34,620 nt of DNA from Candidatus Zambryskiibacteriota bacterium (GCA_023264565.1 JAHFLV010000004.1:13408-48027); one strand, 5' to 3'; positions 6,229 through 34,322 are shown, numbered from the stretch's first letter. The notes: generated by a model not told the origin, from the letters alone. A program made the numbers and translations.

Positions 6229-6256
6229 CAAAGAAAAACGCCCTTGAAAGGGCGTT
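6229..6256 (-). terminator. Rho-independent terminator for the minus-strand orphan operon 6969..6275
   Basis: The minus strand reads acgccct-ttca-agggcgt followed by tttttcttt. Confidence 0.7.
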
Positions 6257-6274
6257 GTAAACGTGGATCGAGAA

Positions 6275-6427
6275 CTAGTGGATGCAGCAACTACCGATCA
6301 GGGTGATCAGTACGAGGCCAACGGTCCAGGTTGTGATCCTAAAACCTTTCCAGAAGCGCCTCCAAAAGCGTTCCTTTTTGGCAAGATACTCCTGATGCCT
6401 TCTCCTTCTCTCCTGATGAGACAACAT
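6275..6427 (-). CDS. Small (50 aa) tail-anchored basic membrane protein, hypothetical
   Basis: Below the track's size cut-off. My own translation is MLSHQERRRRHQEYLAKKERFWRRFWKGFRITTWTVGLVLITLIGSCCIH, stop TAG. GGAG sits 8 nt upstream (ggagtaaaaagaATG). The gene lies between the 166-aa ORF and the terminator. Confidence 0.5.
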   Translation of the reverse strand: MLSHQERRRRHQEYLAKKERFWRRFWKGFRITTWTVGLVLITLIGSCCIH

Positions 6428-6468
6428 TCTTTTTACTCCATGGGGTTTTGGATTTGTCGTTGTGACGC

Positions 6469-6969
6469 TTATTTATCGGGAGTCTCGGAACCGAACCTGA
6501 TGCCCATGCTTGCTGGCTTGAGCCGTGTGAGCTGTGCGAGGAATTTCTCTTTCGCGTCGGCGATTTCGGCGGCTGTGCTTTTGTTGTGGCCGGTTGCCAT
6601 GACGACGGTAATCTTCGTGTTTTTCCACAGCTTCGCCAGTTCGTCGACGTGGATCTTTTTGACCACGCCTTTTTGGACCAGTTCGAGCTGATAGTGGTTG
6701 GCATGTCCAACTGTGTACCAGCCGTAGGGGATTCCGAGATCGAATGTGTCATCTGTTTTTTCAAAACAGATGTAGTCGTCCGGCATGATCGTGCCCGAGA
6801 CGTGTGTTGTTGGGTTCATGAAGGAGACACCGTCGTCTTCTGGTCCGTTGTATGTCCACCAGAACAAAAATGTAACAGCGAAGACTATAAACACACAGAG
6901 CATGCTTTCCCATGGCCCCATTTTTGCTTGGGGATAGGGGTATTGCGACGTCGCTGTTGTTGTGACCAT
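6469..6969 (-). CDS. Hypothetical membrane-anchored protein (166 aa), no family recognised
   Basis: This is the only frame of four overlapping ORFs with protein-like composition: an N-terminal TM helix (MLCVFIVFAVTFLFWW) followed by a mixed-charge domain. It has a weak SD (aaggaactcagaaATG) and its own promoter. Confidence 0.55.
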   Translation of the reverse strand: MVTTTATSQYPYPQAKMGPWESMLCVFIVFAVTFLFWWTYNGPEDDGVSFMNPTTHVSGTIMPDDYICFEKTDDTFDLGIPYGWYTVGHANHYQLELVQKGVVKKIHVDELAKLWKNTKITVVMATGHNKSTAAEIADAKEKFLAQLTRLKPASMGIRFGSETPDK

Positions 6970-7037
6970 TTCTGAGTTCCTTTTCCAAAGAGCTTGTTTG
7001 TTTTCAATTAGCCCAGCGCCATTGACATCTGGAAAGT

Positions 7038-7065
7038 ATTATGATGATTTTGCTGAAAAAGTCAA
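7038..7065 (-). promoter_or_regulatory. Candidate promoter of orphan operon 6969..6275: TTGACT, 16-nt spacer, CATAAT
   Basis: The minus strand reads ttgact-ttttcagcaaaatcat-cataat, about 60 nt upstream of ATG 6969. Confidence 0.45.
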
Positions 7066-7112
7066 GTTTTGTCAGACCCGTCGCGATTTAAAAACTGAGC
7101 ATATATAAAAGC

Positions 7113-7143
7113 TTGATAGCAAGATCATGGGTGCTGGTATACT
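7113..7143 (+). promoter_or_regulatory. Candidate groES promoter: TTGATA, 19-nt spacer, TGgTATACT (extended -10)
   Basis: ttgata (7113-7118) and tggtatact (7135-7143). No CIRCE inverted repeat is seen. Confidence 0.45.
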
Positions 7144-7175
7144 GCTGTCACGATTATTCGTTTACACTTTTTTAT

Positions 7176-7553
7176 ATGAAAAAACAGACAAAAGTAATGA
7201 AGAAATCTCCAGACGTTTCAAAAAATACTGTTAAAAACGAATCAGCAAAAATGTCGGCAAAAATTATGCCGTTGGGTGATCGGGTGCTTCTCAAACCGAT
7301 CCCTGTCGATGAGGTAGAAAAAAGGAACATGTTCGGAATTATTGTGCCAGATACAGTAAGCAAAGAAGCTCCGGAGCGCGGCAAGGTTTTGGCCGTTGGT
7401 GAAGGTCGTTATGACAATGGTAAGTATGTGCCACTTAGGGTGAAAGCCGGCGACATTGTGATTTTTTCTAAATACGGCTACGACGAAGTGAAGTCGGGCG
7501 ACGATAAGCTCTATATATTGAAGGAAGACGGTATTCTCGCCATCATCAAGTAA
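7176..7553 (+). CDS. groES: Co-chaperonin GroES, possibly with a Lys-rich N-terminal extension
   Basis: [12 protein letters not shown]...GKVLAVGEG...[12 protein letters not shown]...[13 protein letters not shown] is canonical Cpn10. The start is uncertain: ATG 7176, 7194, 7251 or 7266. The track start 7113 (TTG) lies inside the putative promoter. Confidence 0.85.
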
Positions 7554-32501: not shown

Positions 32502-32507
32502 TATAGT
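32499..32507 (+). promoter_or_regulatory. Extended -10 box TGATATAGT upstream of rpmE. Its TGA is the stop codon of the preceding gene.
   Basis: ctc-TGA-tatagt, 15 nt before ATG 32523. Confidence 0.45.
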
Positions 32508-32522
32508 ATCCAGCACAAATAT

Positions 32523-32825
32523 ATGAAAGCAGAAATTCACCCAACATATTTTCCAAAAGCGACCGTAGAATGCGCATGCGGCAACAAATTCACCGTTGGC
32601 TCTTCAAAAGAGTCTATTCGAGTTGAAATCTGCAGCAAATGCCATCCTTTTTACACAGGTCAGGAAAAGAGTCTCGACAGCGCCGGCCGAGTTGAAAAGT
32701 TCAAGAACCGCCGAGCTGCAGCCGCTCCAAAGGTCTCAAAGAAAAACGCAGAAGTCGTTTCTTCTACTCCAGAACAAACTCCATCTGATGCTTCAGCTTC
32801 AAACGCGCAGGAATCTGCAGCGTAA
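32523..32825 (+). CDS. rpmE: Ribosomal protein L31 (Zn-ribbon type) with a roughly 35-aa C-terminal extension
   Basis: MKAEIHPTY...CACGN...[11 protein letters not shown]...GRVEKF. Confidence 0.9.
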
Positions 32826-33823
32826 TGAACCTCGATAGTTTTAAACAAAATTCCAAGACCTCGTTTCTTGCTGAACTTTACTCTAAGCTCGAAAAAGAAG
32901 AGGCAGAAGTAAAAAAGATGGCCGAATCCGACCCGTCTTTTGTCGAACTTTCTAAAGATGAACTCGAAAGCATTGTTGCTCAAAAAGAGTCACTCATGAC
33001 TCAAATGAAGGAAATTGTGGCCAAGGACTTTGCCGAAGAAGAATTTCCAAATGAAATCATTCTGGAAGTTCGCGCAGGTGCCGGTGGCGACGAAGCGGCC
33101 CTTTTTGCGGAAAAATTGGCTACTATGTACCGCCGATATGCCGAACGTCGCGGTTGGACTGCTCGAGTGTTGGAAGAGGCGAAAAATAGCCTTGGTGGCT
33201 ACAAAGAAGCTTCTTTTGAAATAAAAGGAAAGGGAGTCTACAAAGATTTACGATACGAATCCGGCGTGCATCGCATTCAGCGCGTTCCAGCGACCGAAAA
33301 GTCTGGACGAGTTCATACATCTACTGCGTCAGTAGCGATTTTGCCTATTCGCAAGAAAACCAAAATCGAAATCAATCCAGCGGACATCGAAATGGAATTT
33401 TCACGATCGGGCGGCGCTGGCGGTCAGAACGTCAACAAAGTCGAAACTGCGGTCCGCTTGATTCACAAACCAACTGGTATTGATGCAAAATGTACGTCTG
33501 AACGCAGTCAGTCTGCCAACCGTGAAAAGGCTATGCAGGTTTTGCAGGCTAAACTCGACGTCGCTCATCAGGAAGCTGAGGCAAAAAAACATTCAGCAGA
33601 GCGAAAGGATCTTGTCGGTACCGCTGACCGTTCTGAAAAAATCCGTACCTACAACATTTTGCAGGATCGAATTACCGACCATCGTTTGAAAGAGTCATGG
33701 CACAATATCGAAAATATTTTTGCCGGGGACATGGATGCGATTATTGAAAGCTTGCAGGAGCGAAGTGCTGGGAAGGGGATTTCTTCTGGTGAGGGAGGTG
33801 AGGTGGAAGGCGATAGCGAATAA
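32825..33823 (+). CDS. prfA: Peptide chain release factor 1
   Basis: PAT tripeptide ([14 protein letters not shown]) and GGQ motif ([17 protein letters not shown]). The start overlaps the rpmE stop (TAATG). Confidence 0.92.
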
Positions 33824-33836
33824 TTTTTAAAAAAGA

Positions 33837-33863
33837 AAGCCCCTTGATGTTATCTCGGGGCTT
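33837..33863. terminator. Hairpin between convergent prfA and the orphan ORF. The T-run is better on the minus strand.
   Basis: aagcccc-ttgatgttatctc-ggggctt. The minus strand continues with tcttttttaaaaa. Confidence 0.6.
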
Positions 33864-33875
33864 GTGATTTGAATC

Positions 33876-34223
33876 TCATTCTTGTTTTCGGGCTAAACCG
33901 TACGAAAGAAGTGCCTTGACGGCTCTGACTGCTGCGAGCACATCCTCTGCTGACTTGGGGACGTCGAGTGTCACGGATTGAATGTTGTATTGACCCCAAT
34001 GCGGTAGGAACTCAACTTGTACTCCTTCGATCTTGTATCGGCGAGGTAGTTTGTACCTATCGTCACGATCCTCACCGCGTTCCCAGGCTGTAACCGTGCC
34101 CAGTTTTGTGAGCATTTTGACTACCTCAACATTGCGTTTCCATGCCCGGGGGTTGCTGAGGTGGGGCTCTTTTGGCCACACGATCTTGTCCATGTCCCTG
34201 CCTGCGTCTGTCGGGTTTGCCAT
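33876..34223 (-). CDS. Hypothetical protein (115 aa), no family recognised
   Basis: AGGAGA (34235-34230) lies 6 nt upstream of ATG 34223, with a TGA stop. The gene has its own TTGACA promoter and terminator. Confidence 0.6.
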   Translation of the reverse strand: MANPTDAGRDMDKIVWPKEPHLSNPRAWKRNVEVVKMLTKLGTVTAWERGEDRDDRYKLPRRYKIEGVQVEFLPHWGQYNIQSVTLDVPKSAEDVLAAVRAVKALLSYGLARKQE

Positions 34224-34293
34224 CGTTGATCTCCTAAATTATGGGTGAGAGTGCAGATGAGGAAAGAGCGAGGTGCTCCAAACGTCTGAATAT

Positions 34294-34322
34294 AGAATAA
34301 AATAAAGTATTAGTTTTGTCAA
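34294..34322 (-). promoter_or_regulatory. Candidate promoter TTGACA, 17-nt spacer, TATTCT for ORF 34223..33876
   Basis: The minus strand reads ttgaca-aaactaatactttattt-tattct. Confidence 0.5.

Follow-up and report, generated by a model that had tools for sequence, protein, structure and literature searches.

Six candidate accessory gene cassettes with a distinct expression grammar between the core operons of a Candidatus Zambryskiibacteriota bacterium

We analysed a 34.6-kb stretch of DNA (34,620 nucleotides, 44.5% GC; hereafter the window) from a Candidatus Zambryskiibacteriota bacterium (GCA_023264565.1 JAHFLV010000004.1:13408-48027), which carries a compact set of housekeeping genes. The host appears to be a Parcubacteria-like member of the candidate phyla radiation (CPR) with a tiny, streamlined genome. 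Between its core operons lie six cassettes, O1 to O6, holding seven orphan open reading frames (ORFs). The cassettes have their own promoters, leaders, Shine-Dalgarno (SD) sequences and terminators, their composition departs from that of the core genes, and their ORFs are absent from the relatives compared; across related loci, an SD and a -35 box go together with accessory status. We favour, with moderate confidence, the reading that they are moron-like autonomous accessory units that were acquired horizontally and inserted between transcription units. Their transcription, translation, direction of transfer and protein function we infer from sequence.

Cassettes and core genes carry different expression signals

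A preliminary description, made by reading the sequence alone, had assigned promoters, SDs, leaders and terminators to the seven ORFs, and all of them were found at the positions given there (Table 1). The cassettes measure 0.35-0.85 kb, and all six fall within 28 kb. Sequence signals give each of them (6/6) a promoter with -35 and -10 matches and an intrinsic-terminator hairpin. The -35 box agrees with the consensus at 6/6 positions in four cassettes, at 5/6 in one and at 4/6 in one; 42-72 nt separate the end of the -10 box from the start codon, and the leaders are about 37-66 nt long, with predicted transcription starts at about 7031, 15176, 20639, 26805, 29730 and 34287 for O1 to O6. In O3 the promoter is a 12/12 consensus match followed by a leader of about 66 nt. 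The -35 box of O5 begins 1 nt past the oxidase stop codon, and its predicted transcript has a 5'-terminal hairpin. The cassettes have the top-scoring full -35/-10 promoters in the window, and also its strongest terminators.

Short strings recur among these signals. The string GGTTGACATT, previously noted as common to two units, is present in the O4 and O5 promoters, and TGACAAAAC in those of O1, O3 and O6. A third, GTTTTTCTTTGC, occurs exactly three times in the window, always in a terminator tail (O1, O3 and O5), and is absent from the ~757 kb of related loci covered by our short-string searches.

We scored SDs as the duplex energy of the anti-SD ACCUCCUUA with the 20 nt upstream of each start codon. 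The orphans gave -12.1 (O5), -11.6 (O2), -8.5 (O3), -7.3 (O6), -6.9 (O4), -5.9 (O1b) and -5.6 kcal/mol (O1a), whereas the 27 core genes ranged from -4.3 to +1.9 kcal/mol, most of them between -2 and +2; as a set they are weaker than random 20-mers from the window (mean -2.1). The energy thus splits the seven orphans from the 27 core genes without overlap, for which the chance is about 1 in 5 million. In every cassette the SD lies 5-9 nt upstream of the start codon. The claim that the cassettes are SD-led stands for all seven ORFs, with the qualification that the SDs of O1a (AAGGAA) and O1b (TGGAG) are weak.

Core genes rely on other signals. Nineteen of them come first in a transcription unit, and in 11 of these (gmad2, secG, htpX, NHL, rrm, DUF192, pfkB, fba, rplY, SLT-like at its second ATG, and uppP) the -10 box ends 6-8 nt ahead of the start codon, a spacing that implies leaderless mRNAs. 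A TGn extension is found in 10/19 of the first-in-unit promoters, mostly in the form TGnTATAnT among the leaderless genes, and a 5/6 match to the -35 box in two, secG and rpmE. Operon-internal core genes are preceded by AT-rich, SD-free spacers. Core genes had been described as lacking both a -35 box and an SD: the second point holds for 27/27, and secG and rpmE depart from the first. These sequence signals suggest that the cassettes may be regulated separately from the core genes.

Table 1. Parts of the six cassettes in the window and cassettes of the same type in related loci (lengths of predicted products in amino acids, aa; CDS, coding sequence)
Feature	Position	Strand	Details
O1 cassette, bicistronic	6230..7065	-	-35 TTGACT 7065-7060, 16-nt spacer, -10 CATAAT 7043-7038; leader ~62 nt
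O1a CDS	6969-6469	-	166 aa; SD AAGGAA 6982-6977
O1b CDS	6427-6275	-	50 aa; SD TGGAG 6440-6436
O1 terminator	6256-6230	-	
O2 cassette	14648..15210	-	-35 TTGCAA 15210-15205, 16-nt spacer, -10 TAGTAT 15188-15183
O2 CDS	15140-14703	-	145 aa; TTG start, alternative ATG 15122; SD AAGGAGG 15154-15148
O2 terminator	14671-14648	-	
O3 cassette	20603..20953	+	-35 TTGACA 20603-20608, 18-nt spacer, TG-extended -10 TATAAT 20627-20632
O3 CDS	20705-20896	+	63 aa; one hydrophobic segment by eye; SD AAGGAG 20693-20698
O3 terminator	20918-20953	+	
O4 cassette	26771..27114	+	-35 TTGACA 26771-26776, 16-nt spacer, -10 TATTGT 26793-26798
O4 CDS	26842-27051	+	69 aa, low-complexity; SD CAGGAG 26830-26835
O4 terminator	27081-27114	+	11-bp stem
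O5 cassette	29696..30213	+	-35 TTGACA 29696-29701, 16-nt spacer, -10 TATTAT 29718-29723
O5 CDS	29778-30158	+	126 aa; SD AAGGAGG 29766-29772
O5 terminator	30187-30213	+	
O6 cassette	33829..34322	-	-35 TTGACA 34322-34317, 17-nt spacer, -10 TATTCT 34299-34294; leader ~64 nt
O6 CDS	34223-33876	-	115 aa; SD TAGGAG 34236-34231
O6 terminator	33861-33829	-	
Relative cassette	L060:10999-11472		between htpX and tRNA-Ser (adjacent in the window); no Pfam match
Relative cassette	L060:8539-9051		no Pfam match
Relative cassette	L065:2363-2806		secG|groES slot; no Pfam match
Relative cassette	L031:1202-1858		Pfam: YdjM

Orphan ORFs differ from the core in composition

That the cassettes are GC-richer than their flanks had been judged by eye, and the computed values agree. 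Orphan ORFs have a GC content of 0.475-0.570 against 0.389-0.509 for core genes (Mann-Whitney P=7e-6), and of 0.49-0.65 against 0.33-0.56 at third codon positions (GC3; P=7e-6). Among single values, O1a stands at 0.51, O1b at 0.50 and O5 at 0.57, the last with a GC3 of 0.65. Orphans also hold seven of the eight lowest values of codon fit to the core (P=1.5e-6), and the reported excess of TGA stops is borne out (3/7 against 1/27; Fisher P=0.021). The deviation extends to the predicted proteins, where the ratio R/(R+K) is 0.54 in orphans and 0.38 in the core, Trp and Cys are threefold more frequent, and Ile and Asn are less frequent. Orphans therefore differ from the core of the window in both composition and codon usage, at P values of 1.5e-6 to 0.02. 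Taken together, these deviations suggest that the orphans are not, or not yet, adapted to this genome.

Most cassette slots are closed in at least one relative

Gene order in relatives follows two conserved blocks, rnj-sbp-secG then groES-groEL-lemA-htpX, with the O1 slot at secG/groES, and rpiB-rpe-tkt-pfkB then fba-(oxidase)-rplY-SLT-rpmE-prfA. The cassettes sit at boundaries between transcription units, and five of the six slots are closed in at least one relative. At the O1 slot, secG and groES are only about 100-120 nt apart in loci L027 and L060, and the gap of 0.4-4.3 kb in other loci marks the slot as variable. The distance from the NHL-like gene to DUF192 is about 250 nt in L031, too short for O2 to fit. 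At the O4 slot, pfkB and fba are separated by 153 nt in L002, and in L001 by a small, AT-rich ORF unrelated to O4. For O5, the oxidase gene and rplY are adjacent in L001, as are fba and rplY in L002; for O6, prfA and rpsB are directly adjacent in L002. Of the five junctions singled out in the preliminary description, secG/groES, pfkB/fba, oxidase/rplY and prfA/rpsB are thus closed in at least one relative; nrdB/gap, the O3 slot, falls outside the comparison because no relative carries both genes.

Two further observations concern these slots. The L001 unit between pfkB and fba (9590-9990) encodes an AT-rich, membrane-like orphan of about 95 residues; its promoter is TTGACA-17-TATGAT, its leader is short and SD-less, and it ends in a terminator of its own. 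In the window, the stretch that separates the secG start from the O1 terminator contains a perfect 28-nt inverted repeat, whose arms (6064-6091 and 6187-6214) are 95 nt apart, the spacer being GC-rich. The secG -35 box (TTGCCA) falls within one arm; the other holds AAGGAG followed by a 4-codon mini-ORF. This repeat could be a MITE-like insertion (miniature inverted-repeat transposable element) or a mark left when a cassette was inserted; it could also be a structured or invertible element.

The same grammar marks accessory genes in related loci

We examined 946 ORFs from the window and 82 related CPR loci (~790 kb), taking as SD-led the 61/946 with an energy of <= -8.5 kcal/mol. These are GC-richer than the remainder (+0.019; P=0.006), and 24.6% of them have TTGAC[AT] upstream, against 6.4% of other ORFs (P=1.7e-5). 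The SD-led share is 10.0% among locus-unique ORFs, 4.5% among those shared with 1-9 loci and 1.0% among those shared with at least 10 (P=1.5e-5). The proposal of a distinct gene class is thereby supported and extends past the window.

All 42 exactly mapped core starts in the relatives are SD-less. The relatives' cassettes have a TTGACA/T-17-TAnnnT promoter, a leader of 35-50 nt, a strong SD, a terminator and usually a raised GC content (Table 1). SD-led genes of known family in the relatives include those for adenylosuccinate lyase, diaminopimelate (DAP) dehydrogenase, a helicase, response regulators and an AAA kinase, which are typical transferable accessory functions; some of the known-family genes, the first two among them, have strongly atypical GC, by up to +0.15. 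The orphan at L065 2363-2806 contains a D...(Q)VK motif (GIDFLVIK...IVIQVKSS) that by eye resembles PD-(D/E)xK nucleases.

The consensus -35 box is avoided in the core

Counted on both strands, the hexamer TTGACA has six copies in the window where dinucleotide shuffles give 28.6 +/- 5.7, a roughly fivefold depletion. Within 28 kb of core CDS it is found zero times in the sense direction and once in antisense, where synonymous-codon shuffling predicts 10.6 and 9.6 (z=-3.8 and -3.2). O3, O4, O5 and O6 account for four of the six copies, with their -35 boxes. Depletion is much weaker in the pooled relatives (observed/expected ratio 0.72-0.96). Native DNA is thus under selection against the consensus -35 box, which is most simply explained if the RNA polymerase of this cell reads the motif.

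Coding status and predicted products

Several features support the orphan ORFs as probable coding sequences. Each has an SD-start layout, the ORFs fill the space between leader and terminator, and GC at first codon positions exceeds that at second positions (GC1>GC2) in six of the seven. Four are long, and we estimate the chance of ORFs of 115-166 codons at this GC at 0.001-0.01 each. The short ones, O4, O1b and O3, are more doubtful. O4 is especially so, as a low-complexity ORF of 69 residues overlapped by longer ORFs in other frames; coding by O1b is less certain because the ORF is short, and its exact sequence is absent from the protein collection searched.

By eye, three products probably have one membrane-spanning segment, three look soluble and one looks disordered. 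O1a would combine an N-terminal hydrophobic anchor with a soluble domain of about 125 residues, and O1b an Arg-rich N-terminus with a hydrophobic segment at its C-terminus. Effector, membrane or immunity roles, as put forward earlier, are guesses. The statement that the orphans belong to no recognisable family holds in so far as Pfam, PHROGs and PADLOC gave no significant match for any of the seven (two PHROG matches had E ~0.02). Nor did any of them match PDB sequences. Single-sequence structure predictions with AlphaFold reached a mean predicted local distance difference test (pLDDT) score of 46.5 for O5 and 40.9 for O2, too poor for a fold search.

Origin of the cassettes

In the reading that we favour, core promoters would be (TGn-)extended -10 boxes whose transcripts usually begin at the start codon itself and are thus leaderless, and operon-internal core genes would begin translation in an AT-rich, SD-free context. 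Each cassette would supply a sigma-70 -35/-10 promoter, a 5' untranslated region (UTR) of 37-66 nt, an SD, one or two small ORFs and an intrinsic terminator; as it brings all its own signals, it could be expressed independently of its neighbours. The source was most likely an unsampled pool, for example the mobilome or other bacteria, and cassettes were probably retained only when they landed between operons. Horizontal acquisition, which the preliminary description had raised, is favoured by the atypical composition and the closed slots; it is not proven, and neither a donor nor a homologue was found in the searches described below.

A number of results weigh against acquisition. O5 and O2, searched individually against 5.8 billion clusters, retrieved only themselves, and an exhaustive HMMER search of 1.84 billion representatives with O1a retrieved itself and one weak repeat-protein match. 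The individual searches of large protein collections covered these three orphans. All seven were without a match in tblastn searches of phages and plasmids and in ~800 kb of related and own-genome loci, as were O1a, O2, O5 and O6 in IMG/VR. The protein collection includes the sample's own assemblies, which makes an abundant donor in the same community unlikely. A repeat scan of the window revealed no flanking repeats or target-site duplications, and no mobility genes were seen. In five of the relatives' cassettes, GC tracks that of the recipient (0.40 in a genome of 0.39; 0.53-0.57 in one of 0.50), which also fits an intrinsic property of a native gene class, and the sharing of GGTTGACATT, GTTTTTCTTTGC and TGACAAAAC hints at a common source or local selection and not at independent donors. 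The core proteins of the compared relatives are only 55-75% identical to those of the window, so gain here is formally inseparable from repeated loss or runaway divergence. Lastly, SD-like motifs are not significantly avoided in core CDS, the result being no different from that of the reverse-complement control, and the anti-SD motif is reportedly missing from about half of Parcubacteria (PMC9297842); the SD sites may or may not work here.

Some other leads were rejected. The O1a match to P0009, a 1550-residue repeat protein (E=1.4e-5), was judged spurious, its score being summed over eight repeats. A phage, plasmid or defence origin was rejected after PHROGs, PADLOC, the phage and plasmid tblastn searches and the four IMG/VR scans all proved negative. 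One repeated mobile element does not account for the cassettes, since UTR alignments reveal short shared motifs without homology and the orphans are not mutual paralogs. SD-motif avoidance as a proxy for a working anti-SD was dropped on account of the control just mentioned.

The main rival reading, possible though we think it unlikely, is that the orphans are native, lineage-specific genes, fast-evolving or arisen de novo, which use a second grammar for separate regulation or translation. This would fit the GC content that roughly follows the recipient, the short motifs common to the cassettes of this genome and absent from relatives, and the lack of a donor for O5, O2 and O1a; the grammar also recurs in many related genomes with different genes, and the avoidance of TTGACA suggests that the host polymerase uses this -35 box. 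The higher GC would then be intrinsic to the class; for instance, more structured, GC-rich mRNAs may need an SD, since SD-independent initiation wants unstructured, AU-rich starts. However, codon usage, GC3, amino acids and stops all deviate alike, which is unexpected in long-resident genes under the same mutation bias, and the slots are closed in relatives. The relatives' known-family SD-led genes, moreover, are transferable accessory enzymes, with GC off by as much as +0.15.

We regard as rather improbable the further idea that the genome has two expression languages, one for a leaderless or SD-less, -10-only core and one for accessory genes with a -35 box, leader, SD and terminator, or else that its 16S rRNA lacks the anti-SD and the SDs are a footprint of import. 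The 3' end of 16S rRNA, which would carry the anti-SD, was sought in all fetched loci and found in none. If two languages exist, the accessory set could be switched through anti-SD availability or through the use of sigma region 4. If the 16S rRNA lacks the anti-SD, the intact SDs would signify a very recent and continuing inflow of DNA from SD-using partner or host bacteria.

For the small hydrophobic units, O3 and perhaps O1b, a type I toxin-antitoxin-like module seems improbable as well; there, a stable and strongly folded mRNA encodes a small hydrophobic peptide, and long-range pairing masks its SD until processing. O3 resembles such loci in a long structured 5' UTR, a masked SD and a strong terminator, and by eye its putative peptide of 63 residues has one hydrophobic segment, as has that of O1b with 50. 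The predicted O3 transcript (20639-20955) folds more stably than shuffled sequences (z=-3.65), the SD and AUG being paired to the 3' end of the ORF, and an antisense RNA could be transcribed from a promoter-like site on the opposite strand (21033-21004). Yet no antisense or antitoxin RNA gene was defined, there is no family match or homology to known type I toxins, and O3 has a long, acidic C-terminal tail that sets it apart from most such toxins. Nor does the explanation extend to most cassettes, which encode larger, soluble-looking proteins (O2, O5 and O6; 115-145 residues).

We consider it very unlikely that the ORFs are spurious and that each GC-rich segment is instead the gene of a structured non-coding RNA, complete with promoter and terminator. 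GC-rich islands of this kind are typical of RNA genes, O4 is low in complexity and overlapped by longer ORFs in other frames, and no homologue is at hand for a test of coding constraint. Against this, Rfam had no match in any cassette, whether at the gathering threshold or at E<=1, and fold z-scores are unremarkable except for O3 (O4, -0.83; O5 likewise unremarkable). An SD lies a short distance before the start everywhere, the ORFs reach to the terminator, chance ORFs of such lengths are improbable, and GC1>GC2 prevails; on these grounds we rejected the non-coding reading.

A chimeric joining of foreign reads into the contig, as a metagenome-assembled source and inserts of atypical composition might suggest, is hardly credible, because four junctions (nrdB-O3-gap, pfkB-O4-fba, O5-rplY and prfA-O6-rpsB) were recovered at 99.9-100% identity in three independent assemblies (ERZ27279942, ERZ27279977 and SRR14366796). 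The O6 arrangement is also present in the independent contigs L005 and L006. Contig break points in the independent assemblies, which might have hinted at presence/absence polymorphism, did not fall consistently at cassette borders.

Comparison with known systems

The closest parallel to the cassettes, read as acquired units, is the moron of HK97/HK022-type phages (Cumby et al. 2012, PMC3594210), a unit defined by having its own promoter and terminator, by a GC content that differs from its neighbours' and by lying between two genes that relatives have side by side. Morons are likewise units of one or two genes with GC unlike that of their neighbours, inserted between genes adjacent in relatives (five of six slots here), and their products are often small membrane or uncharacterised proteins. 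Unlike morons, the cassettes are carried by a CPR core chromosome, among groESL, ribonucleotide reductase, glycolysis and ribosomal protein genes, with no phage genes nearby, and their contrast with the surroundings includes the translation signal, SD-led against leaderless or SD-less. We would therefore call them moron-like in their probable working and place them outside the moron class, as their carrier is cellular.

Islets of horizontal gene transfer and ORFans, the "atypical genes" of gene finders, resemble the cassettes in their atypical GC, GC3 and codons, their absence from relatives, their lack of homologues and their position between conserved operons. In contrast to genomic islets, the cassettes come with neither an integrase nor any other mobility gene, are bordered by no repeats and are linked to no tRNA site; they are also very small, and all of them are complete expression units. 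Integron gene cassettes, which are promoterless ORFs with an attC site behind them, arrayed beside intI, were rejected as a model, the units being dispersed, with their own promoters and without a common repeat resembling a recombination site. The core of the window is SD-less and often leaderless, like that of SD-poor systems (GeneMarkS-2 "group C"; Bacteroidota with an occluded anti-SD; anti-SD-less Parcubacteria, PMC9297842); unlike in those, a minority class with strong canonical SDs coexists with it and coincides with accessory status. In the literature searched, we found no account of CPR genomes divided between leaderless core genes and accessory genes led by an SD.

As most CPR bacteria have not been cultured, their flexible genes are difficult to recognise. 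In the window, the combination of SD, -35 box, leader and own terminator tells accessory genes from core genes nearly perfectly; over the ~790 kb of the window and related loci, it does so statistically. Such a rule may serve to flag acquired or flexible genes and could improve the calling of start sites. It also makes concrete the question of whether, and for which genes, Parcubacteria-type ribosomes initiate in an SD-dependent manner. On the acquisition reading, a streamlined and highly syntenic genome would still be gaining complete miniature expression units at operon boundaries, as phages do with morons.

Gene content, relatives and other features of the window

The core genes are, in order, uppP, a gene for a Gmad2-domain protein, RNase J, a solute-binding protein and secG; groES, groEL, lemA, htpX and tRNA-Ser; genes for a 1,178-residue NHL-repeat protein, an RRM protein and DUF192, then nrdA and nrdB; gap, rpiB, rpe, a split transketolase, pfkB, fba and a FAD oxidase gene; and rplY, a gene for a lytic-transglycosylase-like protein, rpmE, prfA and rpsB. 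The closest public genomes are metagenome-assembled genomes of CPR/Patescibacteria, one labelled Saccharibacteria (58% identity in Fba) and one Adlerbacteria (47%). HtpX is found at 55-67% identity in 80 metagenome loci. All the protein clusters at 90% identity that we checked are singletons, so no close relative is at hand.

Several structured elements lie outside the cassettes. A long imperfect inverted repeat (9909-10014), with 26-nt arms that are 88% complementary and a 54-nt spacer, takes up the region between lemA and htpX, immediately ahead of the htpX -10 box. Two long bidirectional terminator hairpins (1930-1988 and 30987-31047) have stems of 19-20 bp and a common 20-nt loop, CCGCTWCGGCTAAYCGCTAC, which contains a UNCG-type tetraloop; its two copies in the window compare with 0.01 expected and with none in ~757 kb of related loci. 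On the minus strand, 25626-25730 gave a sub-threshold match to the Rfam family Trp_leader (29.4 bits against a gathering score of 41). This match, most likely spurious, falls on the 16-bp bidirectional terminator that separates tktC from pfkB.

The only tRNA of the window, tRNA-Ser(GGA) at 10964-11049, begins 14 nt past htpX and adjoins no cassette there. A mechanically called NHL-repeat ORF of 1217 residues (10996-14649) overlaps it, and the true start is probably a leaderless ATG at 11116. The transketolase is split into N-terminal and C-terminal genes (23374-25624), with a 101-residue, AT-rich hydrophobic ORF between them (24275-24580); the matching position in L001 is a gap of about 300 nt. 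This orphan ORF uses the native, SD-less grammar, so that the unannotated small genes are not all of the cassette class.

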